From Candidatus Krumholzibacteriia bacterium (GTDB lineage: Bacteria; Krumholzibacteriota; Krumholzibacteriia; WVZY01), in assembly GCA_036478295.1 (NCBI GenBank), contig JAZGDW010000214.1, positions 1 through 41,474 on the forward strand: DNA of 41,474 nt. The letters are read 5' to 3'. A model generated the notes under the pieces. The model did not search any database. It was given only the letters and a program-made list of their open reading frames with translations, and was not told the DNA's origin. Positions 5,795 to 26,408 of the stretch are shown here, one piece after another. The translations under genes and the position numbers were made by a program. Within the stretch, counting starts at the first letter, position 1. Every line of letters begins with the position of its first letter.

Positions 5795-7048
5795 TCAGCG
5801 GCCGGTGTCCGGGACGCCCGATCCGGTTCTGGCCAGCCTGCCCACCGTCAGTCCCTGAACGATGATCGAGAACACGACCACGACGTACGTCACCGTCAGC
5901 AGCAGGTCACGCTCATCCCCGGCGGGAAGGGACAGCGCGAGGGCGACGGAGATGCCGCCGTGCAGGCCGCCCCAGGTCATGATCCTCACCGCCCGGGGGC
6001 TGAAGGTCCGTCGCCGGCGCATGACGGTGACGGGCACGCCAACACTAATGAAACGCGCACCGAGAACCACCGGTATCATCAGCAGCCCCGCCACGATATA
6101 GTTCTTCTCGATCGTGATGAGAAGTATCTCGAGCCCGATCAGGAGAAAAAGCACTGCGTTCAGTATCTCGTCCATCAAATCCCAAAACGAATCCAGATGT
6201 CCCCGGGTCTTGTCGCTCATGGCGAGGAGGCGCCCGCGGTTGCCGATGAGAATCCCCGCAACCACCATGGCGATGGGGCCCGACACGTGAATGGCCCTCG
6301 CCAGCGCGTAGCCGCCCATCACCAGCGCGAGCGTAAGGAGCACTTCAACCTGGTAGTTGTCCACGTTCTTCAACATCCAGTACGTCAGCCAGCCGATAAC
6401 GAAACCAAACAAGGCACCTCCGAGCGTTTCCTCTACAAACAAAAGCGTCACGTGCCCGGCGGTTACATCGTGTCCGCCCGTCGCGATTTCCGCCAGCACC
6501 AGAAACACGACCACCGCGACGCCGTCGTTGAACAGGCTCTCTCCGACGATCTTGGTCTCGAGGCTCTTGGGCACGCCCGCCCGTTTCATAATACCGAGTA
6601 CGGCGACCGGATCCGTCGGTGAGATGAGCGCGCCGAAGAGCAGGCAATACATAAAGGGAATGTCGATGTGCAGAAAACCGAACACCGCCCACGCGACAAC
6701 ACCCACGATAACCGTGGTCGTCACCAGTCCCACGGTGGCGAGAATGCTGATGATCCATTTGCGGTCGGCCAAGTCGGCGAGGTTGATGTGCAACGCTCCA
6801 GCGAACAGCAGGAAACTCAGCATACCGTGCATCAAGGCGATGTTAAAATCGATCGTACCGAGAATTTCTGCCGCCTGCGTACGCACGCCCTCGAAACCGA
6901 AATAGCCCAACCCGACCACCCCGAGCGACACGACGATCGCCATCAGCATGATGCCGATCGCGGTCGGCAGGCCGATATAACGGTAGTTGATGTAACTGAA
7001 CACCGCCGCCAGGGTCAGCAGCAGCGCGGCCAGGTCCAAAATCGCCAC
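5795..7048 (-). CDS. CPA1/NhaP-type Na+/H+ antiporter
   Basis: ISPTDPVAV, GESLFND and WGGL.GGIS.ALAL motifs; about 12 TM; GTG start after GAGGAG. Confidence 0.9.
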   Translation of the reverse strand: MAILDLAALLLTLAAVFSYINYRYIGLPTAIGIMLMAIVVSLGVVGLGYFGFEGVRTQAAEILGTIDFNIALMHGMLSFLLFAGALHINLADLADRKWIISILATVGLVTTTVIVGVVAWAVFGFLHIDIPFMYCLLFGALISPTDPVAVLGIMKRAGVPKSLETKIVGESLFNDGVAVVVFLVLAEIATGGHDVTAGHVTLLFVEETLGGALFGFVIGWLTYWMLKNVDNYQVEVLLTLALVMGGYALARAIHVSGPIAMVVAGILIGNRGRLLAMSDKTRGHLDSFWDLMDEILNAVLFLLIGLEILLITIEKNYIVAGLLMIPVVLGARFISVGVPVTVMRRRRTFSPRAVRIMTWGGLHGGISVALALSLPAGDERDLLLTVTYVVVVFSIIVQGLTVGRLARTGSGVPDTGR

Positions 7049-7206
7049 GGGTACACACTCCTCTCTGCACGGTCGGATCACGCCCATCCGCCCGATTGTG
7101 CGGGAGCGTACAGATATCGACACGACAAGTCAAAGGAATCGCCACGGCCCGCCCCGGGGCGGCATCGCTCGGCGACAGGGCCGTGGAAAAGAGCGCAAAG
7201 CGTCAT

Positions 7207-7248
7207 TTGACAACACCGGTGGATCGGCGTAAGCTATTGGCAATAGCT
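7207..7248 (+). promoter_or_regulatory. sigma70-like promoter with overlapping palindromic operator for the tricarboxylate operon
   Basis: TTGACA (7207-7212), N17, TAAGCT (7230-7235); inverted repeat AGCTATT-ggc-AATAGCT (7232-7248). Confidence 0.6.
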
Positions 7249-7324
7249 ATGTACGGCTCCATGAGCGCTTGCACGCAACACCGCGTGAGCGAGAGATTTT
7301 TTTACCTGAAACGGGAGGAATCTT

Positions 7325-7867
7325 GTGAGGGAAGCCGCCGAACGGCTCTGGCCCGAATTACAATGGATCGAAGACGAGGGTCTGCGCGAGAGCGTAACGC
7401 TCACCTGGGTCAAAGCGCTGGAGAGGAGTGCTCTCGCACCGGACGACCTGCTGGAGATTCCGTTTACGCTGCTCGTCCCCGACTGCCCCGCGACCTTCAT
7501 GGAACACAAGCGTTGCGTGGTGCACATCGCCCGCAGATCCGCCGAGTCGATGCGGGAATTTCTGGGCAAGGCCCTCGAGATCGACATGGACACGGTTATC
7601 GCCGGCGCCATACTGGCGGACGTGGGGAAACTGCTCGAGTACGAGAAAGCGGGCGGCAAGACGCGCCAGAGTGCGCGCGGTAAGCATCTCCGGCATCCGT
7701 TCACCGGCGTGGCGCTCGCCCTGGAGTGTGGCGTTCCGGACGAAGTCTGTCATATCATCGCGGCGCATGCCGCCGAAGGCGACCTCGTCCAGCGCACCAC
7801 GGAAGCAATCATCGTTCATCATGCTGACTTCATGAGTTACCTGCCGTTCAAAAATCTCGTGCGTTAA
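7325..7867 (+). CDS. HD/HDIG-domain protein (HD motif reads AD)
   Basis: EH...V, AGAILADVGKLLEY, RHPF.G, HIIAAH and IVHHAD motifs of the HD fold; RBS GGAGG. Confidence 0.8.
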   Translation: MREAAERLWPELQWIEDEGLRESVTLTWVKALERSALAPDDLLEIPFTLLVPDCPATFMEHKRCVVHIARRSAESMREFLGKALEIDMDTVIAGAILADVGKLLEYEKAGGKTRQSARGKHLRHPFTGVALALECGVPDEVCHIIAAHAAEGDLVQRTTEAIIVHHADFMSYLPFKNLVR

Positions 7868-7904
7868 GCCCGCACGCGACGGAGCGGGTGAGGGGAGAAA
7901 ACGT

Positions 7905-9281
7905 ATGTCGGACACGGTTACAGCCAAAATGGCCCGCTGGGCCGCCCAGCTCGAATTCGAACACCTCGGCGACCGGGCGATTCACGAATCCCGCCGTTAC
8001 TTGCTCGACTCGTTGGGATGTGCGTTCGGAGGCTACCGTCAGGAGGACGCGCGTATCGCACTCAAGGTCCTGGACGAGATCGGCGGGTCAGGGGCCGCGA
8101 CCATCATCGGCACGGGCAAGAAGGCGGATCCCGTGACGGCGTCACTCGCCAACGCGTTGATGATCCGTGTCATGGATTACAATGATATTTACTGGCAGCA
8201 GGACCCTTCGCATCCCTCTGACATTATCCCGGCCGCAATGGCGTGCGGGGAACGGTCCGGGCTCGGGGGCAAGGACCTCATCGTCGGTATCGTTCTCGGT
8301 CACGAGTTCGAGATGCGCCTTTGCGAGGCCGCCTTTCCAGGCATCCGCGAACGCGGCTGGCACCATGCGACGCTGACGGCGTTCGCCTCGCCCATCGTCG
8401 CCGGCTGGATGCTGCGCTTGCCCTGGGAAAAGATCCAGCACGCCATCGGTATTTCGGCTTCGCGCCACGCCACCTTCGGTGCGGTCACCGCCGGCAAGCT
8501 CACCATGATGAAGAACACTGTCGACCCGATGGCCACGCAGAGCGGCGTGCTGGCGGCGCTCCTTGCCGAGGAGGGTTACACCGGGCCGGAACACGTCATC
8601 GACGGCAAGGAGGGCATTGCGCACTGCTTTGGTCCCGAGTGGAAACTCGACGTTCTGACCGAAGGGCTCGGCGAATCGTGGCGCATCGAGCGCTGCGGCA
8701 TGAAGGCGTTTCCCACCGAGGCGCTGACGCACGCGCCAATCTCCGCCGTGCTCGACATCGTGGGCGAACATAATCTGAAGCACCCGGACGTGGAGAAGGT
8801 CCACATCCGTTCGCTCGCCCGAGCGGCGGACATTCTTGCCGATCCTTCCAAGTACGACCCGCGTACGAAGGAGACGGCCGACCACAGCCTGCCGTACGTC
8901 ATCGCGGCGGCACTCGTGGATCACCAGGTCACCCCCGCCCAGTTCGAGACCGAACGCATCATGAGCGACGACATCCGCGCGCAGTTGAACAAGGTGGAGG
9001 TCGTGGCGGATGCGGAAATCGAAAAACTTTTTCCGGAGCTCCAGCGTGTCATCGTCACCATTACGACAACGGATGGACGCGAGTTCACCAGGCAGTTGGA
9101 CTACCCGAAGGGCGATCCACGCAATCCCCTGACCGACGACGAGATCGAAACAAAGTTCGACGCCCTGGCGGCGCCGGTCCTGTCGGACGACGCGCGTAAG
9201 CGGCTGAAGGAAGCCGTGTGGGGGCTCGAAGACGTGGGATCAATATCGGAGCTTATGGCGCTGTGCCGCGCCGACAAGTAA
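7905..9281 (+). CDS. prpD: MmgE/PrpD family dehydratase (2-methylcitrate dehydratase-like)
   Basis: RVMDYND, SHPSD, RGWHH, KETADHSLPY and PKGDPRNP motifs. Confidence 0.9.
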   Translation: MSDTVTAKMARWAAQLEFEHLGDRAIHESRRYLLDSLGCAFGGYRQEDARIALKVLDEIGGSGAATIIGTGKKADPVTASLANALMIRVMDYNDIYWQQDPSHPSDIIPAAMACGERSGLGGKDLIVGIVLGHEFEMRLCEAAFPGIRERGWHHATLTAFASPIVAGWMLRLPWEKIQHAIGISASRHATFGAVTAGKLTMMKNTVDPMATQSGVLAALLAEEGYTGPEHVIDGKEGIAHCFGPEWKLDVLTEGLGESWRIERCGMKAFPTEALTHAPISAVLDIVGEHNLKHPDVEKVHIRSLARAADILADPSKYDPRTKETADHSLPYVIAAALVDHQVTPAQFETERIMSDDIRAQLNKVEVVADAEIEKLFPELQRVIVTITTTDGREFTRQLDYPKGDPRNPLTDDEIETKFDALAAPVLSDDARKRLKEAVWGLEDVGSISELMALCRADK

Positions 9282-9293
9282 GGACCTTCGACC

Positions 9294-11240
9294 GTGGGGC
9301 AGACGATAGTAGAGAAGATCGCGCAGGCCCATATGACCGAGGGCCCGGCGCGGCCACTGCGGGCCGGCGATGTTGTTTCGCTTCGCCCGCGGTACGTGAT
9401 GACCCACGACAACACGGCGGCGGTCATGAAGAAGTTCGAGGCGATCGGCGCCGGACGTATTTTTGATCCGCGCCAGCCGGTGTTCCCCATCGACCACGAT
9501 ATTCAAAACAAGTCCGAAGAGAATCTGGCCAAGTACCGGGCGATCAAAGCGTTTGCGCGCGAGCACGGGGTGGATTTCTACCCCGCGGGCACCGGTATCA
9601 GCCACCAGATAATGGTGTCGCAGGGGTACGTGGTGCCCGGCTCGCTGGTCGTGGGATCCGATTCACACTCGAACATGTACGGCGCGCTCGGCGCGTTGGG
9701 AACACCGGTTGTCAGGACCGATGCCGCGGCCATCTGGACGACCGGTGAGTTCTGGTGGCAGCTGCCGCGGACGGTGCAGGTCGTGCTCGAAGGAAGTCTG
9801 CGCGACGGCGTCACGGGTAAAGACATCATCGTCACGTTGTGCGGCCTCTATAATACGGGTGAAGTCCTGAACGCTTTTGTCGAGTTCACGGGGCCGGGAG
9901 TGCGGGTACTTACCATGGACGAGCGCATGACAATCTCGAACATGACGACGGAATGGGGCACCCTCGGAGGATGGTTTCCCGTTGACGAGGTGACCATCGA
10001 CTATCTCCGTGGGCGCAAGACACTCCTCGATGCGGCGGGTGCCCGGCGCCTGACCGAGGAGGACCTCGCGACCTGGCAGACGGATCCGCCGCAGCCCGAT
10101 GCGGATGCGGCGTATGCGGCGCTCATCACGCTCGACCTGGCGCAGGTGAGCCCGCACGTATCCGGGCCGGACAGCGTGCAGGTGATGCGCCCGCTGGCGG
10201 ACATTGCACGGGAAGAAATCACCGTGCAAAAGGCGTATCTCGTTTCGTGCGTGAACAGCCGGCTCGAGGATATCGAAGCGGCCGCCCGCGTCGTCCACGG
10301 CAAGAAGATTGCGGACTCCGTCGAGTTCTATGTGGCGGCGGCCAGCAAGGAGATCCAGGAGGCCGCCGAAGCATCGGGCGCCTGGAGCACGCTGGTAGAG
10401 GCCGGTGCGCGCACGTTGCCGCCCGGCTGCGGACCGTGTATCGGCCTGGGCACGGGCCTGCTCGAAGCCGGCGAAGTGGGTATTTCGGCAACCAACCGCA
10501 ATTTCAAAGGACGGATGGGCTCGCGTGACGCTCAGGTATACCTCGGCAGTCCGGAGACCGTGGCCGCCTCCGCCGTCGCCGGTTACATTACCGGGTCACA
10601 AGCGAGCATGAAAGGCCGTCTTGAGCGAGTGTTCGAGCAGCAACAAACGCCGCCGCCTGCCGATGAGACGGTGGAAATTATGAATGGATTTCCCCGCGAA
10701 GTTTCCGGGCGGCTCGTGCTCGTCCCGCGCGACAATTTGAACACGGACGGAATCTACGGCAAGGACTATACGTACCGCGACGAAATGACTCGCGAGCAAA
10801 TGGCGCGCGTCGTCATGGAAAACTACGACCCGGAGTTTGCGGACAAGACGAGGGAGGGCGACATTCTGGTCGGTGGGTGGAATTTTGGAACGGGTTCGAG
10901 CCGTGAACAGGCGGCCACCGCTTTGCAGGCCAAGGGCATCGTACTCGTCGTAGCGGGCAGTTTCTCGCAGACCTACCTGAGAAACGCCTATAACAACGGC
11001 TTCGTGTGCATCGAGTGCCCCGCGCTCGTGTCCCGCCTGAAGGAACAGGAGCAAGAGGAACTCGCCAGGGAGACGCCTACCATCATTCCGGGTGATGTGC
11101 TCGACATTGACTTTTCGCGCGGCACGGCGACGTACCGGGGGGAGGCATTCCGCTTTCCACCCCTTGGGTCGGTACCCCAGTCGCTGGTAGTGGCGGGCGG
11201 TATCGAGAATCTCGTGCGCGAGCGCCTGGCGGCCGGATAG
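9294..11240 (+). CDS. single-chain aconitase-family hydratase, fungal-type homoaconitase-like (Lys4/LysF)
   Basis: MTHDN, DHDIQNKSE.NL.KY, DFYPAG.GI.HQIM, SDSHSNMYG, VRTDAA.IW.TG..WWQ, SCVN, CGPCIG and GTGSSREQAATAL; large and small domains fused. Confidence 0.85.
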   Translation: MGQTIVEKIAQAHMTEGPARPLRAGDVVSLRPRYVMTHDNTAAVMKKFEAIGAGRIFDPRQPVFPIDHDIQNKSEENLAKYRAIKAFAREHGVDFYPAGTGISHQIMVSQGYVVPGSLVVGSDSHSNMYGALGALGTPVVRTDAAAIWTTGEFWWQLPRTVQVVLEGSLRDGVTGKDIIVTLCGLYNTGEVLNAFVEFTGPGVRVLTMDERMTISNMTTEWGTLGGWFPVDEVTIDYLRGRKTLLDAAGARRLTEEDLATWQTDPPQPDADAAYAALITLDLAQVSPHVSGPDSVQVMRPLADIAREEITVQKAYLVSCVNSRLEDIEAAARVVHGKKIADSVEFYVAAASKEIQEAAEASGAWSTLVEAGARTLPPGCGPCIGLGTGLLEAGEVGISATNRNFKGRMGSRDAQVYLGSPETVAASAVAGYITGSQASMKGRLERVFEQQQTPPPADETVEIMNGFPREVSGRLVLVPRDNLNTDGIYGKDYTYRDEMTREQMARVVMENYDPEFADKTREGDILVGGWNFGTGSSREQAATALQAKGIVLVVAGSFSQTYLRNAYNNGFVCIECPALVSRLKEQEQEELARETPTIIPGDVLDIDFSRGTATYRGEAFRFPPLGSVPQSLVVAGGIENLVRERLAAG

Positions 11241-11364
11241 AGCGCACCGATCCGTCACGGGTACGCCGTGCCGGTTGAAACAGCGCGCGCCCGTCCGTCA
11301 CGGGCACGCCGCGCAGGCGGACCCGGTCGCGGCGCGACGATTACAACAGGAGGCAAGAGCGAAC

Positions 11365-12549
11365 ATGCGACATACAGTGGTGACGATGCCGGGAGACGGT
11401 ATCGGCAAGACCGTTCTCCCCGAAGCGGTACGGGTGTTGGATGCTGCCGGCTTCGAAGCGGACTACGTACATGCCGACATCGGTTGGGATTTCTGGATCA
11501 ACGAGGGCAACCCGCTGCCGGACAAGACACTCGATTTATTAAGAGAACACAAATTGGGATTATTCGGCGCCATCACTTCCAAGCCCAAGGACAAGGCGGC
11601 CGCCGAGTTGCATCCCGACCTTCGTGACAAAGGCCACGTTTACTTCAGTCCCATTGTGGGCATGCGGCAGATTTTCAACCTCGACATCTGCATCCGCCCG
11701 TGCCGTTCGTTCGTTGGCAATCCGCTCAACTTCGTCCGCCAGGCCGCCGGCGGCGGTGTCGAGGAGCCCAACGTCGACGCGGTGATATTTCGCCAGAACA
11801 CCGAGGGTCTCTACTGTGGTATCGAGTGGACGAATCCGCCAGAGGCGGTCCGCGCGGCACTGGCCACGCATCCAAAGTACAAGACGTTCGCCGACGTCCC
11901 CGGCGACGAGATGGCGATGTCGGTCCGTTTGTTCACGCGGCGCGCCTGCAGGAGGATCCTGGATAGTGCCTTTCGCTACGCGAAGAAGCACGGCTACCCG
12001 TCGGTCACGATTTGCGAAAAACCGAACGTGCTGCGCGAAACATCGGGAATGCTCGAAGAAGAGGCCCGCAAAATACATGAGGACTACCCGGACATCGACC
12101 TCTGGTCGACGAACATCGACGCACAGATGATGTGGCTGACAAAAAACCCCGAGAACTACGGAGTTATCGTGGCGGGAAATCTCTTCGGCGACATCGTCTC
12201 GGACGCGTTCGCCGGTCTCGTCGGCGGACTCGGCTTTGCCTGTTCGGGGAATATCGGAGACGAGGTCGCCGTATTCGAGCCCACGCACGGCTCCGCCCCA
12301 AAGTACGCCGAACTCGACCCCTCCATCGTCAATCCCGTCGCCATGATCCTCAGCGCCGCGATGATGCTCGATCACATCGCCGAGGGGGACAAAGCGAGCA
12401 GGATTCGCGACGCGGTGGCGGCCGTCGTCAAAGACGGCAAAGTGAAGCCTTACGACATGATGCGTTTACCCGGTGGTGCCGGCGCGGTGGCGAAGGGTGC
12501 GGCAACAACAACCCAGATGGCGGATGCCATCATCGCCAGGCTCGCGTAG
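11365..12549 (+). CDS. isocitrate/isopropylmalate dehydrogenase family, homoisocitrate dehydrogenase-like
   Basis: PGDGIG, LFGAITS, YFSPIVGMRQ, RQNTEGLY, NLFGDIVSD and FEPTHGSAP; ATG 11365 after AGGAGG. Confidence 0.88.
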   Translation: MRHTVVTMPGDGIGKTVLPEAVRVLDAAGFEADYVHADIGWDFWINEGNPLPDKTLDLLREHKLGLFGAITSKPKDKAAAELHPDLRDKGHVYFSPIVGMRQIFNLDICIRPCRSFVGNPLNFVRQAAGGGVEEPNVDAVIFRQNTEGLYCGIEWTNPPEAVRAALATHPKYKTFADVPGDEMAMSVRLFTRRACRRILDSAFRYAKKHGYPSVTICEKPNVLRETSGMLEEEARKIHEDYPDIDLWSTNIDAQMMWLTKNPENYGVIVAGNLFGDIVSDAFAGLVGGLGFACSGNIGDEVAVFEPTHGSAPKYAELDPSIVNPVAMILSAAMMLDHIAEGDKASRIRDAVAAVVKDGKVKPYDMMRLPGGAGAVAKGAATTTQMADAIIARLA

Positions 12550-12562
12550 CGTGGGAGGAAGA

Positions 12563-13834
12563 ATGCAGAAGAGTAACCACAAGGAAACGCCGACCGGCAA
12601 ACGGCCCGCTAAACGCGCGGCAGCCCCTGACACAGCAAGTGCGAAGGGTGAAGCCGGCCGCCGGGGAGACGACATTCGATCCGATCTTTTCGTATCGGCC
12701 ACCGTTAGAGACGCCGGCAAACTCGACATGACCGTTTCCTCGAAGGTCGAGGCCTTCTACGGCAAGTCGATACGTGAGACGGTTGGTTCGGTTCTCGCAG
12801 CGTACGGTGTCACGCACGCAAGCGTTGAAATAGAGGACAAGGGTGCGCTGCCGTTCGTCATCGCGGCGCGTGTCGAAGCGGCGCTCCGCCGCGCGGGCCT
12901 GCGGGGAGACGCCCGTCCCGAGCGCACTGTCGCCCAGGCTGCCCCGACGGCCAGGGACCGGCTGCGGCGGTCCCGCCTCTACCTGCCGGGCAACGAGCCG
13001 AAATTCATGGTGAATGCCGGTGTCCATAAACCGGACGGGATCATCCTCGACCTGGAGGATTCAGTACATCCCTCGGAGAAGGATGCGGCGAGAATCGTCG
13101 TGAGGAACGCGCTCCGGTGTGTCGACTTTCTCGGCGCCGAGCGCATGGTGCGTATCAACCAGCTGCCCCTGGGTTTCGACGACCTCGAAGAAATCATTCC
13201 CGAAGCGCCCGATCTGACCCTCGTACCCAAGGTGGAAAGCGCGGAGGACCTCGTCGAGGTCGAAAGCCGCATCCAGCAGATTCACTCGACGCACAAGGGC
13301 GGCGGTCAAGTCTGGATCATGCCGATAATCGAATCGGCCCGCGGCGTCGAGAACGCCTACGCCATTGCATGCGCGGCGGAGACCGTCGTGGCCCTTACCG
13401 TCGGACTCGAGGATTACACGGCCGACCTCGGTGTGCCCAAGACGAAGACGGGAGACGAATCGCACTACGCGCGCTCGCGTATCGTCAACGCGGCGCGGGC
13501 CGCCGGTGTGCAGGCAATCGACTCGGTCTTCGGCGACGTCGGCGACATGGACGGGCTGAGCGCGTGGGGCGAACGGTCGCGTGCAATGGGGTTCGAGGGA
13601 ATGGGATGCATCCACCCGCGTCAGATTCGCCCCATCCACCAGGCATTCGCGCCGTCGCCGGAAGAGATCGAGAAAGCACTGAAAATCGTGGCCGCCTTCG
13701 ACGAAGCCACGGCCAAGGGCCTGGGCGTGGTCAGTCTCGGCACGCGCATGATCGACCCCCCCGTGGTGCTCCGTGCCCAGCGGCTGGTCGAGGCGGCACG
13801 GCGTGCCGGATTGCTGCCCGGCGACGACACCTAG
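12563..13834 (+). CDS. citE: fusion of citrate lyase acyl-carrier-like domain (CitD) and citrate lyase beta subunit (CitE)
   Basis: N-terminal RSDLFV...SKVEAFYGKSIRETV..VLAAYGV....VEIEDKGALPFVIAARVEAALRRA resembles CitD; then RSRLYLPG, ILDLEDSV, GLEDY, GMGCIHPRQ and MIDPP of CitE. Confidence 0.88.
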   Translation: MQKSNHKETPTGKRPAKRAAAPDTASAKGEAGRRGDDIRSDLFVSATVRDAGKLDMTVSSKVEAFYGKSIRETVGSVLAAYGVTHASVEIEDKGALPFVIAARVEAALRRAGLRGDARPERTVAQAAPTARDRLRRSRLYLPGNEPKFMVNAGVHKPDGIILDLEDSVHPSEKDAARIVVRNALRCVDFLGAERMVRINQLPLGFDDLEEIIPEAPDLTLVPKVESAEDLVEVESRIQQIHSTHKGGGQVWIMPIIESARGVENAYAIACAAETVVALTVGLEDYTADLGVPKTKTGDESHYARSRIVNAARAAGVQAIDSVFGDVGDMDGLSAWGERSRAMGFEGMGCIHPRQIRPIHQAFAPSPEEIEKALKIVAAFDEATAKGLGVVSLGTRMIDPPVVLRAQRLVEAARRAGLLPGDDT

Positions 13835-13862
13835 CCGCGGCACAGGTTTGTGGAGGAACGCA

Positions 13863-15422
13863 ATGAGCGGAAAACATGAGTTTGTAGTGAACAAGGTGGG
13901 AAGACGCGTTCCCACCACCGTCAACGGCATGACACAGACACCGTTTCAGGGTGTCGGCGCGTTCACGCCGCAAAGCGCCAAGCACGGCCCGCCGGTAAGG
14001 TCGTGCAGCGACTATCCCGACGACGGGGACAAACGCGTGCCCGATCTCGAGACCGCGCTTCGGAAATGCGGGATCAAAGACGGCATGGTCATCTCCAGCC
14101 ATCACCATTTGCGTAACGGCGACCGGGTCGCCCTGCTCGCCCTGCAGGCCGCTGCCAGCATCGGCGTCAAGGACCTCGTGTGGTTCCCCAGCGCTTCTTT
14201 TCCCTGCCAGGCGCCAGTCATCGACCTCATGGAACAGGGAGTGGTCCACCACATCGAGGGCAGCATGAACGGTCCCCTGGGAGAATACTGTTCGCGTGGC
14301 AAGATGCGGGGTTTGGGCGTGCTGCGCTCACACGGCGGCCGATGGCAGGCAATCCAGGATGGCGAAGTCAAGATCGACATCGCGGTCATCGCCGCCCCAA
14401 CGGCGGATGCGTTCGGCAACGCGGATGGTTCGCACGGTCCCTCGGCGTGCGGGTCTCTCGGCTTTGCCCTGGCCGATTCGACGTACGCCGACCGCGTCAT
14501 CGTCGTCACCGACAACCTCGTTCCGTTCCCTTGCATCCCGTGGCAGATCCAGGGCAACAACGTCGACTATGTCGTCGAAGTGAACTCGATCGGCGACCCA
14601 GCGAAGATCGTCTCCGGCACCACGCAGATCACGAAAAGTCCAGACCGCCTGCTCGTCGCCGAGTACGTTGCCCGATTTTTGAGGGACGCCGGCATCATGC
14701 GGGACGGTTTCTCGTTTCAGGCCGGCGCCGGCGGCATAGCGCTGGCATTCGTCGACTACCTGAAAGACATGATGAAGCAAGCCGGGATAAAGGCACGTTT
14801 CGTCCGCGGTGGCTCGACGCGCCTTCTCGCCGACCTGCTCCGCGACGGCCTGACCGACTATATTCTCGACGGCCAGACGTTCGACCTCGCCGGCGTGGAG
14901 TCTATCGGTTCCAATCCCCGCCACGTCGCAACCTCGCCTTTTACATCGTACAATTTCCACGGCAAGGGCAACTTCGCCTCCATGGTGGACGCCGTTGTCC
15001 TTGGGGCGACCGAGGTGGACGTCAACTTCAACGCCAACGTCGTCACGCACTCCGACCACATGCTGCTCCACGGCATCGGCGGCTGGCAGAACTGTCTCGC
15101 CGCCGGCTGTACGATACTCGCCCTCCCGTCGTTTCGCAACCGCATTCCCGTTATTATCGACGAGGTAACGACGATCACCGGCCCCGGAGACTTGATCGAC
15201 GTCGTCATTTGCGAACGCGGTATAGCGGTCAATCCGAAACGCACCGACCTGCTGAAACAGCTGCGCGGCTCAGACCTGCCGATACGGTCGATAGAAGAAC
15301 TCAAAGAAGACGTCGAACGCATCGTGGGGGGCAAACCCGAACGTACCCAACCCAACGACAACCCGGTCGCCGTGGTCAAGTGGGTCGACGGCACCCTGCT
15401 CGATACGGTGTGGCAGGTTTAG
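13863..15422 (+). CDS. citF: citrate lyase alpha subunit / citrate CoA-transferase
   Basis: GIKDGMVISSHHHLRNGD, RSHGGR, FSFQAGAGG, LGATEVDVNFNANV and GIGGW motifs. Confidence 0.92.
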   Translation: MSGKHEFVVNKVGRRVPTTVNGMTQTPFQGVGAFTPQSAKHGPPVRSCSDYPDDGDKRVPDLETALRKCGIKDGMVISSHHHLRNGDRVALLALQAAASIGVKDLVWFPSASFPCQAPVIDLMEQGVVHHIEGSMNGPLGEYCSRGKMRGLGVLRSHGGRWQAIQDGEVKIDIAVIAAPTADAFGNADGSHGPSACGSLGFALADSTYADRVIVVTDNLVPFPCIPWQIQGNNVDYVVEVNSIGDPAKIVSGTTQITKSPDRLLVAEYVARFLRDAGIMRDGFSFQAGAGGIALAFVDYLKDMMKQAGIKARFVRGGSTRLLADLLRDGLTDYILDGQTFDLAGVESIGSNPRHVATSPFTSYNFHGKGNFASMVDAVVLGATEVDVNFNANVVTHSDHMLLHGIGGWQNCLAAGCTILALPSFRNRIPVIIDEVTTITGPGDLIDVVICERGIAVNPKRTDLLKQLRGSDLPIRSIEELKEDVERIVGGKPERTQPNDNPVAVVKWVDGTLLDTVWQV

Positions 15423-15552
15423 CCGGAACAAGGGGTCAGTCGCGCAGTCCCTTCTCAGTTTTCTTATGTTATAAAAGCCGATCGTCTCTCAATGAGGGAG
15501 GACGTCGATTGCCGGGGTGCTCGAAGAGACACCGGCTTCCACGCCAGCAATG

Positions 15553-15577
15553 AAAAAGGGGCCGACCTCGGCCCCTT
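15553..15577 (-). terminator. rho-independent terminator
   Basis: AAGGGGCCGA-cc-TCGGCCCCTT inverted repeat with a U-run on the minus strand, downstream of the 15616-16158 gene. Confidence 0.7.
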
Positions 15578-15615
15578 CCATTGCAACGCATGTTCGCTCG
15601 CCGGATTTTCTCCGC

Positions 15616-16158
15616 CTAGTGTTGCACCTGGGGCTTCCGGCCGGTCGGTTGGGAAATCGCGCCATCAAAGATGATGTGTCCCTCACCCGTGAAGGCGTTG
15701 CCACTACCGTCGTACATGCCGCTTCCCGTCGCGTTTTTGAAACGTCCTGACCCTCCGGTCACGTCCCAGTCCCCGGAGAATGTTTGGGCTCCCGTGGCGT
15801 CCGGAGGCGTAGTGAATCCTACGGCCGCAATCTCCAATTCATCTCCATTCGCGGCCGAAAACACTATCGTCCCCGTTGTAACACCCATGTCTGCTTGTAA
15901 GACGCCAAAAAACGTACTTTTGCCCAAATAGGTCGCGAATCCTTCACCATTTAGTTCGACGTTGACGATGGGTGGAGGAAATGGTGGCACGAGCACGAAG
16001 GTCTCGTCGTATACCCCCCTGAATGGGACCATGACGGGGGAGACCGGCGAGATTGGTTCGAGCGCTGGATCGGACATATCGGCCTGGAGCGGGCCCTCTT
16101 CGTAGCAGCCAGTAATCAAGAGGAGCCCTACAGCGAGAAGTGGGATGAGCAATTTCAT
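15616..16158 (-). CDS. hypothetical lipoprotein (beta-rich; GGSGRFKNATGSG motif)
   Basis: MKLLIPLLAVGLLLITGC lipobox; RBS AAAGGAG. Confidence 0.7.
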   Translation of the reverse strand: MKLLIPLLAVGLLLITGCYEEGPLQADMSDPALEPISPVSPVMVPFRGVYDETFVLVPPFPPPIVNVELNGEGFATYLGKSTFFGVLQADMGVTTGTIVFSAANGDELEIAAVGFTTPPDATGAQTFSGDWDVTGGSGRFKNATGSGMYDGSGNAFTGEGHIIFDGAISQPTGRKPQVQH

Positions 16159-16558
16159 ATCGATGCTCCTTTTCACGAGTGGAATAAAAAGGCGTGGATC
16201 GAACCGAAATTTACGAACCCTTAAAAACGGACGAGAGATTTGACGATTCTGCGCAGATGTTGTTCGGGAGATGCTGCTCAGATATGCTCAGTCGAGGGTG
16301 AGCAGACGCTATCACAGACCCCGATATAAGTCAACTTGACATAAGTCAATTTAATTGTTTAACAACCGGTCAACTGTTAACAAGTTGGGCTGCAAAGCAT
16401 GTCGAAGCTGGCCAACTTGAACGACAGGGCACGGCGGCACTTGAACCCGCGCATGCTGGCAGGTTCACCCGCGACCCGGTTGCCAAACACCTGTTTTTGT
16501 ACTACCATTGTGCTCTCGATCCGCCATAGCCCCACCGAACCTCACCGGAGGTACGACC

Positions 16559-18530: not shown

Positions 18531-19433
18531 TTGTCGTCTACCGCACCAGCCGGACACACCGCCCCAATCCCCCGGCTACGCAAGAGCGCGCTCATGTCGG
18601 GCAATGAGGCCATCGCACGCGGCGCGTGGGAGGCCGGCGTCCACTACGCCACCGGCTATCCCGGTACGCCGAGTACCGAGATACTCGAGAACATTTCCAC
18701 TTATTCGAGCATACAGTGCGAATGGTCCACCAACGAAAAGGTCGCTCTCGACATCGGCATGGGGATCTCGCTGTCCGGCAAGCGCGCGCTGGTAACGATG
18801 AAGCATGTCGGGCTCAACGTCGCCTGCGACTCGTTCATGGTGCTTGCCTACTCCGGTTGCATCGGCGGGCTCGTCGTCGTGTCGGCGGATGACCCCGGCA
18901 TGCACTCATCGCAAAACGAGCAGGACAACCGTTATTTTGCGAAGTTCGCCAAGGTGCCGTTGCTCGAACCGGTAGACCCGCAGGAGGCGAAGGACTTCGT
19001 GGCAATCGCCTTCGAAATGTCCGAGCGGTTCGAGACACCCGTGCTGCTCCGCACGACCACCCGGATTTCACACACCAAGGGCGTGGTCCAGCTCGGTGCG
19101 CGAAGCGTGGGGCCGCCGTTGCGTTACGAGACCGATATCCCCCGCTTTCTCGTGCCACCGTTCGCCCGCAAGCGGCGGCCGACGGTCGAAGCTCGAGTAA
19201 AGCGGTTGCAGGGATTCAGCGAGTCCTTCGAGTTCAACCGCGTCGAAGAGGGAGAAGCGCATACCGCCGTCATCGCGAGTGGAGTGGCCTACCAGTACGC
19301 CCGCGAAGTCTTGCCCGATGCGACGTATTTGCGTATTGGCATGGCGTTCCCGTTCCCGGTCGAGAAGGCGCACGACTTTTGCGAGCGTTTCGAGACCGTC
19401 CATGTTATCGAGGAAGGCGAGCCGGGAAGCTGA
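18531..19433 (+). pseudogene. iorA: indolepyruvate:ferredoxin oxidoreductase alpha subunit, C-terminally truncated
   Basis: GNEAIARG, YPGTPSTEI, NEKVA, MKHVGLNVA.D and ADDPGMHSSQNEQD; stops at VIEEGEPGS after 300 aa, lacking the TPP-binding and ferredoxin domains; no iorB follows. Confidence 0.75.
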
Positions 19434-19630
19434 CCGCCTTGTCATCCGGCCACACAAGTCCAAAGCGCGGACCTTGTTGGCTTGCTAGTTGCTTTTAATG
19501 CCCCAAGACCGTGAGTGCCACAGCCTGCCCCGCAGTGTTGCCAGGGGGCTGCCACGGACGAAACGTGTTAACTGGCTATTTCTGAGTGGCTCACCTGGCA
19601 AGGAAATCCCGCCTTATCATGGAGGAAATT

Positions 19631-20341
19631 ATGACCCAGCCGAAGATTGCCACTCTATTATCGCGTTTTGCAGTGGTCTGCATTGCGCTGTTGCTGGCAG
19701 CCTGCAGCAGTTCCGATACTCCGACCCAGCCGATTATCACCAATCCAGGGGGCACCGGGTCGATGACGCTCCAGGTGGATGCGGACGCCCTGGGGGCCGA
19801 CGACGGCCCAGGCGGCACTTTCATCACCGATTTTAGCGTTACCGTTAGTGATACGCTGGGCGTACCCGTTACGGGCGCGACCGTTGCCGTGCAGACGCCC
19901 TACGGCACCGTCACATTGATAGAGGCAGGCACCGCCGGAACCTACAACGCCCAGACACAGACCTACCAACCGGGCGTGTACTCGGTGAGCGTCGTGCGTG
20001 GACCGGACAACGTAACTGGAGTCACCGTGATTGGCCCCGAGATTCACACGATTACGTTTCCCACAGCGCAGTCGGCGATCGCCATGGACCAGCCGATCGA
20101 TGTTCGCTGGTCCCGTTCGACAGCCGCACAGGAATCACGTGTGGAAACGAGGGACTACACGGGCAACTGGGTCATGTCTGACACCGGTTTCTCGACCGTG
20201 CCGGCTTCCGGCAACCCGCCCCGCACCGACCAGCGTTTCCGGGTGAAGCGAGCCAACCGGCAGGCGGCGAGCGGCGGACTCGCGGGCTCCGATTTCCGGG
20301 TGCGGATTCGCACCGAGGTCGAGCCGGTCGTGTCCCAGTAG
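19631..20341 (+). CDS. hypothetical lipoprotein (Ig/beta-sandwich-like, Thr/Gly-rich)
   Basis: LLLAACSS lipobox; RBS GGAGGA at 19621. Confidence 0.75.
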   Translation: MTQPKIATLLSRFAVVCIALLLAACSSSDTPTQPIITNPGGTGSMTLQVDADALGADDGPGGTFITDFSVTVSDTLGVPVTGATVAVQTPYGTVTLIEAGTAGTYNAQTQTYQPGVYSVSVVRGPDNVTGVTVIGPEIHTITFPTAQSAIAMDQPIDVRWSRSTAAQESRVETRDYTGNWVMSDTGFSTVPASGNPPRTDQRFRVKRANRQAASGGLAGSDFRVRIRTEVEPVVSQ

Positions 20342-22794: not shown

Positions 22795-23376
22795 TCAATC
22801 GACGGGCCGGTTGCGGTTCACCACATCCTCCCAGCCGTCCGGGGGAGCGATGGCGACGGTCTCGATCTTGTCGAGGAAATCCTGCATCTTGAGTCGGTCG
22901 TTATCGATCTCGGTGGATAAGACGGACCGAAGCGAGCCGTGGTAAACGCCGAAGAGCGGCTCGAAACCTTTCTCCGTGCGGAAGACGACGGCCTTCGCGC
23001 CGGGCGGCGCCCCGGAGCGTTCTGCGAGCAGCGTGTGGATCCACTCGGGCCGGATCCCAATGCAGTCGCACGCGGTGACGAATACCCAGCCGTCCGGGCC
23101 GTTGTCGTCGACGGCCGTCAACAACCCGCCGATGGGGCCCTTTTCGGGCACGATATCACCGACGGTTTTCAAGCCCAGGTCCGAGTACCGCCCGTCGCGA
23201 TCCGCGACAACGGTCACGCTCTCGGCGACGCCCGCGAGCGCATCGGCCAGGCGAACGACGGCGGGTGTTCCCTCGATCGGCGCGCGCGCCTTGTCGCTGC
23301 CGAAGCGGCGGCTCTTGCCGCCGGCGAGGATATACACGGGGATCCGCGCGCTGCTATCGTGACCCTGGCCGGTCAT
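22795..23376 (-). CDS. mobA: molybdenum cofactor guanylyltransferase
   Basis: ILAGGKSRRFGSDKA, GPIGG, TACD and EPLFGVY motifs; downstream of napAB. Confidence 0.9.
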   Translation of the reverse strand: MTGQGHDSSARIPVYILAGGKSRRFGSDKARAPIEGTPAVVRLADALAGVAESVTVVADRDGRYSDLGLKTVGDIVPEKGPIGGLLTAVDDNGPDGWVFVTACDCIGIRPEWIHTLLAERSGAPPGAKAVVFRTEKGFEPLFGVYHGSLRSVLSTEIDNDRLKMQDFLDKIETVAIAPPDGWEDVVNRNRPVD

Positions 23377-23422
23377 CCGGTTTCGCACTTCCTTTCGCCG
23401 GGCGCTACCGTAAACGCCGCGC

Positions 23423-23857
23423 TTACTTCTTGCCCGTGGGCACCCCGGCCACCTCGGCCTGCGGCACATGACACTGCAGGCAGTTGTAACGAACCCCGGT
23501 CACTCCGTCACTCGTCCTGGCACCGGTGTGCTCGTTGACGAAGTGCGACGGCGGCACGGCGGTTGCGACGTGTCCTTCCGCCACTTCGTCACCCTCGAGG
23601 TGGCAATCGAGGCAGTCGTTGGTCGTACGATCGATCACCAGTCCCACAACACTGTGCGGGACCACGGGCGGCGCACCCGCGTAGGCGCGTGGCAGCACGC
23701 TCGTCTCGCCGGGATCCGCCGAGGGGTAGGTGTTCATGCCCGGCTGTCCCGTCGCCAGGCCGGCCGCACCATAGTTGGTACCGGGTCCGGACTGGCAGGC
23801 GAACACGACAAGGAGGCTCAGCATGACGATGGCTACCATCCATTTGTGACGCTTCAT
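23423..23857 (-). CDS. napB: periplasmic nitrate reductase diheme cytochrome c subunit (possible lipoprotein)
   Basis: RAY.GAPPVVPH, CLDCH, PPSHF and RYNCLQCHVPQ; N-terminal LVVFAC lipobox. Confidence 0.88.
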   Translation of the reverse strand: MKRHKWMVAIVMLSLLVVFACQSGPGTNYGAAGLATGQPGMNTYPSADPGETSVLPRAYAGAPPVVPHSVVGLVIDRTTNDCLDCHLEGDEVAEGHVATAVPPSHFVNEHTGARTSDGVTGVRYNCLQCHVPQAEVAGVPTGKK

Positions 23858-23868
23858 AACATGCCTCC

Positions 23869-26268
23869 TTATGCAACCCTCGCGATGCTCACTGCGCATT
23901 TCTTGTAGTCGGTCTGCTTGGATATCGGGCAGAACGCATCCAGTGTGACGTTGTTTATCATCACGTCCTCGTCGAACCAGGGGACGTAGACCATGCCCTT
24001 CTGCGGGGTGACCCGTCCGCCGATTTCGACATGCAGATCGACGTGACCTCGTCTCGATGCGATCCGCACCTTGTCACCGTTCTTGAAACCCAGCCGCGCC
24101 GCATCATCGGGGTGCAGGGTGGCCGTGGCGTGAGGATACGCCCGCGCGAGGTTTTTCACCCTGCGCGTCATGGTACCGGAATGCCAGTGCTCCATTACCC
24201 GGCCCGTGCACAGCCACAAGGGATATTTCGCGTCCGGCATCTCGGGGGGATCCTCGTACGGCCGAAACCAGATCGTCGCCCTGTCGTCCTGTTTCTTGTT
24301 GCCGTAAAACTGGAATCCGCGGCCCTTCTCCACATACGGGTCGTACCCTTCGCGGTAGCGGATGAGCGTCTCCTTGCCATCAACGACGGGCCACCTCAAA
24401 CCCCGCGTTTCGTGATAGCGGTCGAAAGGCGTGAGGTCGTGCGCGTGACCGAGGCCAAACTTGCGATACTCCTCCCACAAGGCCTTCTCCATATAGAAGC
24501 CCGCCGTGACACTGGCATCCGATGCCTTGTGGCCGGCGGGAATCGCGTAATCGGTCGCGGGGTACTCGAAGAGCTTGCCGTGGCCCATGCGCTTGGCGAA
24601 CTCGATGATCTGCCACAGATCGGACCTGGACTCACCCGGCGCATCGACCATCTGTTTCCAGAAGTGCGTGCGGCGTTCCGCGTTGCCGAACGAGCCTTCC
24701 TTCTCCACCCACATGGCGGTGGGCAGCACGATGTCGGCCACCTCGGTGGACCGCGTGGGGTAGACGTCCGACACAACGACGAAGCGTCCCTCCTTGAGCG
24801 CGCCGTCGCGGTAGCGGTTGAGGTTCGCGTAATCCTGGAACGGATTGGCCGTCGTCGACCAGAAGAACTTCACGTCTCCCCGATCCAGGGCACGCACCAT
24901 CTCCACCGCGTGATAGGTTGGTTTGTCCGGAATGGTTCCGGCCGGCAAACCCCATATCTTCTCCGCCACCTCCCGGTGCTTCGAGTTCCCCACCACCATA
25001 TCGGCGGGCAGGCGGTGGGTAAACGTGCCGACCTCGCGGCAGGTGCCGCACGCACTCGGCTGGCCGGTCAGTGAATACGGATGGTTGCCGGGTTCGCTGA
25101 TCTTGCCGGTCAGCAGGTGCAGGTTGTTGATGAGGTTGTTCATCCACGTGCCGCGCGTGTGCTGGTTGACCCCCATGGTCCAGAACGACATCACTTTGAT
25201 ATTGGGGTCGCCGTAGATCCCGGCCAGGTATTCCAGGTCCGCCGGCGACACGCCGCTGATTTCCGCCACGCGCTCCGGCGTGTAATGCGCAACGGATTCC
25301 TTGAACGCGTCGAACTCGATGACCTCCGCCTTTTCCTTGAACACGGACTTGTCTTCGAGGCCGTAGCCGATGTTCTCCCTGCCCTTCTTGAAGAGCGCAT
25401 GTTTGCTCAGGAACTTCTCGTTGATCTGTCCCTTCTGGATGAGCAGGTTGGCGATACCGTTGGCGATGGCCAGGTCCGACTGCGGTTTGAAGATGATTTC
25501 TTTCTCCGCCACCTCCGACGAGCGGGTAGACATCGTCGTCAGGTTGACGAGCCGTGCGCCCGTGCTGGCGAGAAGCCGGTTGGTCATTTTGGAATGCAGG
25601 ATGGGATGCATTTCCGCGGTGTTGGCCCCCCATAGTATAAAGGCATCGCAATGGTCGAAGTCCTCGTACGTCCCCATGGGCTCGTCCATGCCGAACGTGG
25701 TCATGAAGCCCGCCACCGCGCTCGCCATGCAATGGCGAGCGTTGACCTCGAGGCTATTCGACCGCAGTCCTCCCTTCCACAACTTCGCCGCCGCGTATCC
25801 TTCCCATATCGTCCACTGCCCGGAACCGAACATCGATACCGCCGCCGGGCCTTTTTCCTCGATCGCCCGCTTCGCCATGGTCGCCATCAGGTCCAGCGCG
25901 TCGTCCCACGAGGCTTTCTCGAGCTTGCCGCGTTTGTCGTAGCGGCCGTTTCGCATCCGAATCAGCGGCACGGTCAGCCGGTCCGTGCCGTACTGGATGA
26001 ACGGCAGCGCGTAGCCTTTGACACACAGCGTCCCCTGGTTCACGGAAGATTCGGGATCGCCTTTGACCGCCATTATCTTGCCGCCGCTCACGCCGACCAT
26101 CACCGAGCAACCCGTTCCGCAAAACCGGCAGGGCGCCTTGTCCCATACGAGGTCCGTCTCCGGGTTACCGGCGAAACTTTCGAAGGGATTGAGATAGATG
26201 CCGCTCCCCGACACGAGGAGCGTACACGCACACTGTCTGATGAAATCTCTCCTCGACAGCGGTTTCAT
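23869..26268 (-). CDS. napA: periplasmic nitrate reductase catalytic subunit
   Basis: Tat signal SRRDF; CRFCGTGC..LCVKG 4Fe-4S motif; NARHCMASA; SLTGQPSACGT; C-terminal CPISKQTDYKKCAV. Confidence 0.96.
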   Translation of the reverse strand: MKPLSRRDFIRQCACTLLVSGSGIYLNPFESFAGNPETDLVWDKAPCRFCGTGCSVMVGVSGGKIMAVKGDPESSVNQGTLCVKGYALPFIQYGTDRLTVPLIRMRNGRYDKRGKLEKASWDDALDLMATMAKRAIEEKGPAAVSMFGSGQWTIWEGYAAAKLWKGGLRSNSLEVNARHCMASAVAGFMTTFGMDEPMGTYEDFDHCDAFILWGANTAEMHPILHSKMTNRLLASTGARLVNLTTMSTRSSEVAEKEIIFKPQSDLAIANGIANLLIQKGQINEKFLSKHALFKKGRENIGYGLEDKSVFKEKAEVIEFDAFKESVAHYTPERVAEISGVSPADLEYLAGIYGDPNIKVMSFWTMGVNQHTRGTWMNNLINNLHLLTGKISEPGNHPYSLTGQPSACGTCREVGTFTHRLPADMVVGNSKHREVAEKIWGLPAGTIPDKPTYHAVEMVRALDRGDVKFFWSTTANPFQDYANLNRYRDGALKEGRFVVVSDVYPTRSTEVADIVLPTAMWVEKEGSFGNAERRTHFWKQMVDAPGESRSDLWQIIEFAKRMGHGKLFEYPATDYAIPAGHKASDASVTAGFYMEKALWEEYRKFGLGHAHDLTPFDRYHETRGLRWPVVDGKETLIRYREGYDPYVEKGRGFQFYGNKKQDDRATIWFRPYEDPPEMPDAKYPLWLCTGRVMEHWHSGTMTRRVKNLARAYPHATATLHPDDAARLGFKNGDKVRIASRRGHVDLHVEIGGRVTPQKGMVYVPWFDEDVMINNVTLDAFCPISKQTDYKKCAVSIARVA

Positions 26269-26408
26269 GCCCGCCTCTCCTTTCTTGCACAACGGCAAAC
26301 GTACGCCTTTGACGCAATCATCGATTTCCGCGACTAACTGTAGCGGGCAAAGCAGGACCCGTCAAGAAACGGTGCGCCGATTCGCGGGGAGTTGACAAGA
26401 ATCATGAC

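Follow-up and report, generated by a model that had tools for sequence, protein, structure and literature searches.

Three described systems come close to the one considered here. The first is citrate lyase CitDEF (EC 4.1.3.6; citCDEFXG in E. coli), whose carrier, lyase and transferase parts work in a two-step cycle: the acyl group is first exchanged, and cleavage then yields acetyl-carrier and a 2-oxoacid. It is a citrate (pro-3S)-lyase, that is, of the Si type; the matching homocitrate is the (S) isomer, in which the acetate-derived arm is unreachable for aconitase-type enzymes. A close known relative, grouped with citrate lyase, is the acyl carrier protein-dependent citramalate lyase of clostridia. 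The second system is the 2-methylcitrate cycle (PrpC, PrpD, AcnB and PrpB), in which PrpD dehydrates the Si-type product in the aconitase-inaccessible arm and an aconitase-family enzyme rehydrates the alkene. The third is the upper α-aminoadipate pathway of fungi (homocitrate synthase, aconitase with the homoaconitase Lys4, and homoisocitrate dehydrogenase), whose homoaconitases interconvert homoaconitate and homoisocitrate only, another enzyme handling homocitrate (PMC3556520). Here we describe six genes at positions 7325-15422 of a stretch of bacterial DNA 41,474 nucleotides long, the whole of which we call the window, whose products are related to parts of all three systems.

The window is contig C129 of a metagenome-assembled genome (3.5 Mb, 316 contigs, 91% complete) of a Candidatus Krumholzibacteriia bacterium. 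The six genes run on the + strand in the order HD-like protein, MmgE/PrpD-family protein, Lys4-type homoaconitase, Iso_dh dehydrogenase, CitD-CitE fusion (CitDE below) and CitF. Open reading frame (ORF) calls and Pfam and NCBIfam matches agree with a sequence-only reading of the locus, made before any database search, on both gene content and shared orientation. The genes are closely spaced, with intergenic gaps in order of 37, 12, 124, 13 and 28 nt when the starts are set by ribosome-binding sites, which places the starts of the last three genes (11365, 12563 and 13863) later than those of the longest ORFs. The features are as follows.

7207..7235, +: promoter-like site predicted from the sequence letters alone, TTGACA (7207-7212), 17 nt spacer, TAAGCT (7230-7235)
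7325..7867, +: HD-fold protein, 180 residues; Pfam HD (PF01966) 36.2 bits, cut-off 22; GTG start behind GGGAGGA
7905..9281, +: MmgE/PrpD-family protein, 458 residues, proposed homocitrate-type dehydratase/hydratase; Pfam N domain E 9e-70, C domain E 8e-47
9294..11240, +: hydro-lyase of the Lys4 (fungal) homoaconitase type, large and small subunits fused, 648 residues; TIGR00139
11365..12549, +: β-decarboxylating dehydrogenase of the isocitrate/homoisocitrate family, 394 residues; Pfam Iso_dh E 4e-75; ATG behind AGGAGG
12563..13834, +: fusion of CitD-like carrier and CitE-like lyase; Pfam ACP (PF06857) and HpcH_HpaI (HpcH/CitE)
about 12644-12910, +: CitD-like carrier domain within the fusion; Pfam ACP
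13863..15422, +: CitF-like acyl-carrier/coenzyme A (CoA) transferase, 519 residues; Pfam CitF (PF04223) E 3.5e-131

On the basis of the families, motifs and gene distributions set out below, we propose that the six genes may encode a single pathway for homocitrate-type tricarboxylic acids, which would convert 2-oxoadipate to 2-oxoglutarate and acetate. We give this proposal a probability of roughly 35%.

Conservation and modularity of the six genes

Related loci were collected by a pattern scan over one genome per species, in which at least 600 stretches matched, at least 590 of them coding for a protein related to the PrpD-family one. The counts for individual loci given here refer to the best 80 of these. 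All six genes are found in the same order and on the same strand in 61 of the 80, within spans of 7.5-11.4 kb. A contig end cuts 16 of the 19 incomplete loci, and there are three real or possible exceptions: in L039 the last three operon genes are missing within 7 kb, in L050 the HD gene is missing within 9 kb upstream, and in L064 the upstream sequence available is 1.3 kb long. Since most loci keep both order and strand, and nearly all of the others end at a contig edge, the conservation of the six-gene order exceeds chance. The 80 loci are labelled as Gemmatimonadota, Latescibacterota, Rhodothermales, Acidobacteriota/Terriglobia, Thermoanaerobaculia, Akkermansiaceae and Eisenbacteria. In these loci the PrpD-family protein is 72-85% and the HD protein 70-84% identical to that of the window; over all the relatives from other phyla that were compared, the range for the PrpD-family protein is 72-88%. 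Such high sequence identities over these distances point to strong constraint, to transfer of the whole operon, or to both.

The flanks are not conserved in the same way. When the flanking ORFs of the 80 related loci and the window were clustered, no family occurred in more than 15 loci, and the commonest families (DUF3857/transglutaminase, an Ig-domain protein and an acyl-AMP ligase) are all unrelated to the operon.

The window's own phylum was surveyed in 155 genomes, each at least 85% complete. The PrpD-family protein has a match at E ≤1e-100 in 60 of them (24 of these with at least 62% identity, the others with 47-54%), and CitF in 114 (identity at least 65% in 89, 53-57% in 23 and about 34% in two). 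The Lys4-type homoaconitase is found in 91 genomes, in 90 of them at 53% identity or more, and the HD protein in 121, with 92 at 57% or more. The four genes largely co-distribute by family (f9, f4, part of f1, and genus g25), even where they are dispersed. Thus in the large family f9 the PrpD-like gene adjoins the homoaconitase gene, the CitDE-CitF pair is found 80 kb from these or on a different contig, and the HD gene stands alone. In one genome (G054) the six genes are together and reshuffled: dehydrogenase, homoaconitase, HD, PrpD-like, CitDE and CitF. Because the phylum genomes often disperse the genes, and the CitDE-CitF pair also occurs alone, the system is modular and the window operon is its compact form. 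The expectation that the operon would be conserved as a unit is therefore borne out in the closest loci and, with the order changed, in G054, and not in much of the phylum from which the window comes.

This modularity leads to one alternative, that two or three independent modules (CitDE-CitF; PrpD-like protein and homoaconitase; dehydrogenase; HD protein) have simply been joined in some lineages. The dispersal in f9 would fit it, as would genus g26, which has the homoaconitase and lacks CitF, and families f7 and f8, which have a CitDE-CitF pair (CitF 53-57% identical) and no homoaconitase. In the stretches fetched from genomes G183 and G184, a CitDE-CitF pair with CitF 79-81% identical to that of the window has none of the other four genes alongside; these genomes carry elsewhere a PrpD-like protein (53-54% identity), a homoaconitase (58%) and an HD protein (65-66%). 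On the other side, the six genes occur together across at least six phylum-level labels, the grouping survives the reshuffling in G054, the intergenic gaps are as short as 12-13 nt, and the distributions of the genes over the families of the phylum largely coincide. We regard a mere joining of separate modules as very improbable.

Several local variants were seen. In Acidobacteriaceae loci, a gene of the DinB_2 family (about 160 residues, PF12867, E 2e-15) lies between the PrpD-family and homoaconitase genes (L020:10454-10939, and the same position in L022, L026, L038, L046 and L059), while L019, L062 and L075 have lineage-specific inserts, with no Pfam match, between dehydrogenase and CitDE. 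In genus g23 (L089:8322-17201 and L086:614-9704) a PrpD-like gene of 51% identity is followed by a nickel/cobalt energy-coupling factor (ECF) uptake system (NikL-like protein, CbiM, ABC ATPase and NikR) and then by CitDE-CitF; the HD homologue of these genomes (58% identity) is elsewhere, adjoining a zinc alcohol dehydrogenase. In f4, seven of the nine homoaconitase matches (G056-G060, G063 and G066) contain one in-frame TAG or TAA, and G061 and G065 contain none; in f4 the large and small subunits may be separate proteins, not fused.

Enzyme families and a proposed homocitrate lyase pathway

The last two genes have the same parts and the same Pfam families as citrate lyase, and their products probably share its two-step cycle. 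The identity to the E. coli proteins is 38% for CitD, 35% for CitE and 39% over 465 residues for CitF. CitF scores 484.7 bits against the citrate lyase equivalog TIGR01584, just under the cut-off of 501.45, and CitE falls well short of TIGR01588 (264.2 bits, cut-off 443.4). By these sequence comparisons, CitDE-CitF is a distant relative of true citrate lyase. It differs from it also in that the carrier is fused to CitE, and in that the operon partners are a dehydratase, a hydratase and a dehydrogenase rather than a citrate carrier and oxaloacetate decarboxylase.

The carrier departs from that of citrate lyase. In a MAFFT alignment, Ser14 of E. coli K-12 CitD, which we take to be the attachment site of the prosthetic group, lies opposite an Arg shared by all 34 of the orthologues compared. 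This Arg is followed at +1 by an invariant Ser, and the sequence Arg-Ser-Asp is found in 60 of 61 orthologues. In the alignment, therefore, no serine stands at the canonical position, which is occupied instead by a conserved Arg-Ser-Asp motif. Missing as well are the accessory proteins on which all known citrate lyases depend, namely CitG and CitX, for the synthesis and attachment of the prosthetic group, and CitC, for its acetylation. As the sequence-only reading had stated, there is no citC, citG, citX or synthase gene inside the operon, and a search of the genomes extends this: CitG was found in none of five carrier genomes checked (the window genome and four others) and none of 50 operon-bearing genomes, CitX in none of the five, and CitC as one weak match (33 bits) in one of the five. 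All three were matched in the E. coli genome, which served as a positive control. A profile of the carrier domain gave, among solved structures, chance matches to designed proteins and a weak match to MdcC (E 1.4).

The HD-like protein is less easily placed. It shares its fold and its Pfam domain with the metal-dependent phosphohydrolases of the HD superfamily, but the His-Asp dyad is replaced by Ala-Asp (A97, D98) in 35 of 35 orthologues, in an alignment with a mean column identity of 77%. It also differs from these enzymes in its tricarboxylate operon context, which holds no hint of a nucleotide substrate. Its AlphaFold2 model (pLDDT 89) best matches the HD domain of YhaM (9h3f; Z 15.4, 161 residues aligned, root-mean-square deviation 3.2); other fold searches gave generic HD-fold matches, and a protein atlas gave unnamed HD clusters. 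No solved relative was found by sequence at E ≤0.01, and no second Pfam family even at E 10. A role as a carrier phosphodiesterase like AcpH was considered from precedent, and no support for it was found; complex predictions, from alignments, of the HD protein with the CitD-like carrier domain scored 0.00 twice, which is uninformative either way. The conservation suggests that the HD-like protein is an integral sixth part of the system, in a role that neither family nor fold explains.

An indication of substrate comes from the hydro-lyase, which scores 747.8 bits against the homoaconitase equivalog TIGR00139 (cut-off 529.9). Its identity is 53% with a protein from the aphelid Amoeboaphelidium, a fungus-like eukaryote, and 58% with a planctomycete 'homoaconitase'. 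The C-x-x-C pair of cluster ligands, Cys379 and Cys382, is kept in all 71 orthologues, and the third cysteine is Cys319 in the first signature region; we presume these assignments to the 4Fe-4S signatures of the family. The specificity loop has an Arg in 67 of 71 orthologues, as in the aligned loop of the methanogen homoaconitase.

The label PrpD, given by the sequence-only reading, stands at the level of the family, through the N and C domains of Pfam, and not at the level of function: the protein is far from all three PrpD equivalogs (88 against a cut-off of 950, 78.5 against 575 and 53.6 against 458 bits). Its gene adjoins the homoaconitase gene, even in f9 where CitDE-CitF lies elsewhere. 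The stereochemical argument for a partnership of these two enzymes holds up. A lyase of the Si type needs a PrpD-type partner, and a second dehydratase is needed because fungal homoaconitases carry out only the second half-reaction (PMC3556520).

The dehydrogenase belongs to the isocitrate/homoisocitrate branch by its family matches and relatives. After the HGSAP motif all 67 orthologues have Lys-Tyr, presumably the NADP signature of E. coli isocitrate dehydrogenase, where two aligned structures of the NAD type have Asp-Ile. The substrate loop Ser-Pro-Ile-Val is also invariant in the 67.

The operon can now be set beside the two other described systems. It would follow the logic of the 2-methylcitrate cycle, with dehydration by a PrpD-family enzyme and rehydration by one of the aconitase family, but it contains no methylcitrate synthase and no methylisocitrate lyase, and it would end in an oxidative decarboxylation (or reductive carboxylation) that is impossible for 2-methylisocitrate. 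With the fungal upper α-aminoadipate pathway it has in common the fused Lys4-type homoaconitase, a dehydrogenase of the isocitrate/homoisocitrate family and an isomerisation split over two enzymes, which in fungi are aconitase (Aco2/AcoA) and Lys4 (PMC3556520). It differs from it in that the first half-reaction is here assigned to the PrpD-family protein rather than to aconitase, in that (S)-homocitrate is expected rather than (R), and in that the dehydrogenase is of the NADP type; nor was a homocitrate synthase (see below) or a lower lysine pathway found.

The chemistry that we propose would thus run as follows. The dehydrogenase would reductively carboxylate 2-oxoadipate to homoisocitrate, which the Lys4-type homoaconitase would dehydrate to cis-homoaconitate. 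The PrpD-family enzyme would then hydrate cis-homoaconitate to (S)-homocitrate, the isomer beyond the reach of aconitase-type enzymes. CitF would load (S)-homocitrate onto a thiol carrier in exchange for acetate, and the CitE domain would cleave the homocitryl-carrier to 2-oxoglutarate and acetyl-carrier. The net reaction would be 2-oxoadipate + CO2 + NADPH to 2-oxoglutarate + acetate + NADP+. The thiol carrier would not be the canonical group that CitG and CitX make for CitD; it might be free CoA, or a cofactor on the Arg-Ser-Asp motif. A substrate of the homocitrate class is suggested by the homoaconitase equivalog, the loop Arg, the PrpD-type partner and the stereochemistry.

Alternative readings and genome background

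The main argument against a six-carbon substrate is that plain citrate needs no PrpD-type enzyme. The corresponding alternative is nevertheless worth setting out: an ordinary citrate lyase acting on six-carbon acids, in which 2-oxoglutarate, CO2 and NADPH would give isocitrate, then cis-aconitate, citrate, and finally oxaloacetate and acetate, as a dedicated reductive branch alongside the oxidative cycle. In its favour, CitF comes within some 17 bits of the citF equivalog cut-off, and CitDE-CitF is wider in the phylum than its partners (compare the 114 genomes with CitF with 60 for the PrpD-like protein and 91 for homoaconitase). One such pair (L100:6869-13700, CitF 54% identical) lies between the genes for phosphoenolpyruvate (PEP) carboxykinase and pyruvate kinase, an arrangement that may point to oxaloacetate as the product of this lyase branch. 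The Ser of the dehydrogenase loop is at what we take to be the position of the isocitrate-binding Ser113 of the E. coli enzyme. Against it, citrate is prochiral and an ordinary aconitase suffices, so that both a PrpD-type enzyme and a homoaconitase limited to one half-reaction would have no purpose; it is the homoaconitase equivalog, and not an aconitase one, that the hydro-lyase passes; the genomes already have AcnA and isocitrate dehydrogenase; and two residues after the loop Ser, all 67 dehydrogenases have Ile at the position that we presume to be that of the substrate-binding Asn115 in E. coli isocitrate dehydrogenase. A citrate route of this kind seems to us distinctly unlikely.

A further set of observations, together with the separate occurrences of CitDE-CitF described above, weighs against the homocitrate pathway as proposed. 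For the dehydrogenase, the homoisocitrate dehydrogenase equivalogs are not reached (265.2 against 540 and 249.7 against 500 bits), and an invariant Val (67 of 67) aligns with Arg85 of the Thermus enzyme, which we take to be the substrate-recognising residue. The clustering of flanking ORFs revealed no transporter, regulator or aminotransferase conserved beside the operon. A 2-oxoacid is not usually broken down by way of reductive carboxylation, and we infer both chain length and direction from sequence. The nearest solved relatives of the PrpD-family protein, finally, are IDS-epimerase and IRG1/cis-aconitate decarboxylase (E 5e-40 to 6e-27), with 2-methylcitrate dehydratase further off (E 2e-13), and for this reason the protein could carry out chemistry other than hydration or dehydration.

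This last point, together with a sub-threshold match of the CitE domain to the itaconate-degradation lyase RipC (153 bits, cut-off 375), suggests another alternative: the PrpD-family protein might be a decarboxylase, an epimerase or a double-bond isomerase, and the pathway might act on some other acid, for example an itaconate-like compound or an epimeric tricarboxylate. On chemical grounds, though, cis-homoaconitate has no carboxylate placed for a vinylogous decarboxylation in the style of cis-aconitate, and the Lys4-type enzyme would still miss its partner dehydratase. The identity to all characterised members of the family is low, and homology does not settle the chemistry. We consider such a change of reaction improbable.

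The remaining alternative concerns the direction. Run in reverse, the same enzymes would make (S)-homocitrate from acetyl-carrier and 2-oxoglutarate through CitE and CitF, and dehydration, rehydration and oxidative decarboxylation would then give 2-oxoadipate. This amounts to the elongation of a 2-oxoacid with no homocitrate synthase and with no CoA thioester spent. The sequence-only reading favoured a synthetic direction, with 2-oxoglutarate or 2-oxoadipate as the product, and mentioned a catabolic one as a possibility. Equilibrium values of citrate analogues, which are approximate, put the overall chain, at standard state, a few kJ/mol or less from equilibrium, so that acetate, CO2 and the NADPH/NADP+ ratio would set its direction, and removal of the product could pull it towards 2-oxoadipate.

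The genomes themselves give little place to a synthetic role. Citrate synthase is present in all five carrier genomes checked, and an aconitase of AcnA size in four, the window genome among them; the fifth is an incomplete assembly. The window genome has two Iso_dh genes besides that of the operon, and the other carriers also hold isocitrate dehydrogenases. The idea that 2-oxoglutarate is made here without a classical synthase or aconitase therefore fails, and a replacement of the citric acid cycle can be set aside. A use of 2-oxoadipate in making lysine is not evident either. None of the 155 phylum genomes has a match over the cut-off to homocitrate synthase (TIGR02146), to LysW (TIGR01206; also none of the five carriers) or to Lys2 (TIGR03443; scored on three candidates per genome, with no positive control genome), so that none of them shows a way to lysine from 2-oxoadipate or 2-aminoadipate, while DapB is present in the window genome and in three of the four other carriers. 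Lysine biosynthesis as the use of 2-oxoadipate is thus unsupported. To these points may be added the NADP-type motif, the lack of a CitC-like ligase to keep the carrier acetylated, and the preference of such a lyase for cleavage at cellular concentrations.

Some features of the phylum keep the biosynthetic direction alive, and so count against the shortening of 2-oxoadipate. Homocitrate synthase goes unrecognised in all 155 genomes, and the 90 that carry a Lys4-type homoaconitase would accordingly not use it in a canonical aminoadipate pathway. A DapB_C match is absent from f2 (0/16) and f4 (0/11) and nearly so from f5 (1/10), and most of these genomes are more than 90% complete; either their DapB is too divergent, or these lineages lack the diaminopimelate pathway. 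These DapB-poor families mostly carry both a homoaconitase (9/11 in f4 and 8/10 in f5) and a saccharopine dehydrogenase family gene (11/11 and 9/10). Even so, synthesis of 2-oxoadipate appears unlikely to us, since no lysine-making sink is evident and citrate synthase and aconitase are present. The catabolic direction, although unproven, fits better. We think that shortening is the physiological direction, on the basis of the NADP-type motif and the lack of a visible sink for 2-oxoadipate, and this tilt is a weak one.

It is worth adding that in one of the 155 genomes (G151:C194:1001-2229, L105) a homocitrate-synthase-like match (287 bits) directly adjoins a LysW-like one (49 bits), both under the cut-off. 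This pair may be an acquired or contaminant aminoadipate-pathway cluster.

For a shortening pathway, a source of 2-oxoadipate is plausible, in that the window genome is predicted to encode an L-lysine 6-transaminase (G000:C97:4035-5309; TIGR03251, 646.7 bits, cut-off 520.8). Across the phylum the two do not go together, which is a further point against this use: of the 24 genomes with a close PrpD-family orthologue 7 have the transaminase, as do 50 of the 131 others, and in the system-rich families it is rare (f9 1/71, f4 0/11). The saccharopine dehydrogenase family does not follow the system either, with members in 132 of the 155 genomes and none in that of the window. A link to lysine breakdown through the transaminase was rejected on its counts.

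Upstream region, neighbouring genes and implications

The sequence-only reading placed the operon behind a sigma70 promoter. Its -35 element is a perfect TTGACA and the spacer is 17 nt long, but the -10 hexamer TAAGCT agrees with the consensus at three of six positions, which is below the threshold of a consensus promoter scan, so that the site was unlisted there. It is better called a promoter-like, predicted site. A perfect 8+1+8 inverted repeat at 7232-7248 overlaps its -10 region. The palindrome was found upstream of the operon in none of 75 other loci, which excludes a conserved operator; it may be a lineage-specific operator or a product of chance. A search of Rfam for riboswitches and leaders within 6900-16400 gave no match at E ≤1.

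Upstream, the neighbouring gene encodes a Na+/H+ exchanger on the opposite strand, and the downstream neighbours are unrelated to the operon. Some 3 kb past its end (18531-20341, +) there is an ORF with a POR_N domain, the thiamine-diphosphate N-domain of 2-oxoacid:ferredoxin oxidoreductases, followed by an ORF with no family match; this type of neighbour is not kept in related loci. Further on are two neighbouring molybdopterin oxidoreductase genes of 809 and 739 residues (23869-28628, -), adjoined by a gene for a MobA-like nucleoside triphosphate transferase at 22795-23469.

No description of this operon or of a homocitrate lyase pathway was found in the searchable literature, in which subscription journals lie outside the coverage. 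The six genes would appear to represent a conserved, uncharacterised pathway made from known enzyme families in a new combination, and the chemistry proposed for it is plausible on sequence grounds. It is possible, if on balance doubtful, that they represent a part of central carbon metabolism that is widespread and so far undescribed, in which a homocitrate lyase pathway shortens (or lengthens) 2-oxoadipate with a carrier independent of the CitG/CitX system. In such a route the carrier would work through a cofactor bound to the Arg-Ser-Asp motif, or the His-less HD protein would assist it. As all five enzymes are soluble and come from well-studied families, the proposal is directly testable in vitro.

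Were it true, there would be a citrate-lyase-type enzyme that is independent of the CitC/CitG/CitX system, and a two-enzyme solution to homocitrate isomerisation unlike the fungal one. It would also give a function to bacterial genes that are now labelled 'homoaconitase', 'citrate lyase' and '2-methylcitrate dehydratase', labels that mislead metabolic reconstructions, in which citrate fermentation, the methylcitrate cycle or the aminoadipate pathway is then wrongly called. A corollary is that Lys4, which fungi use in making lysine, is a member of a family often found in bacteria, and may be of bacterial origin. As for the organisms, bacteria of soil and sediment, in several hundred species, would be able to connect C7 with C5 2-oxo-dicarboxylates by a route absent from pathway maps.

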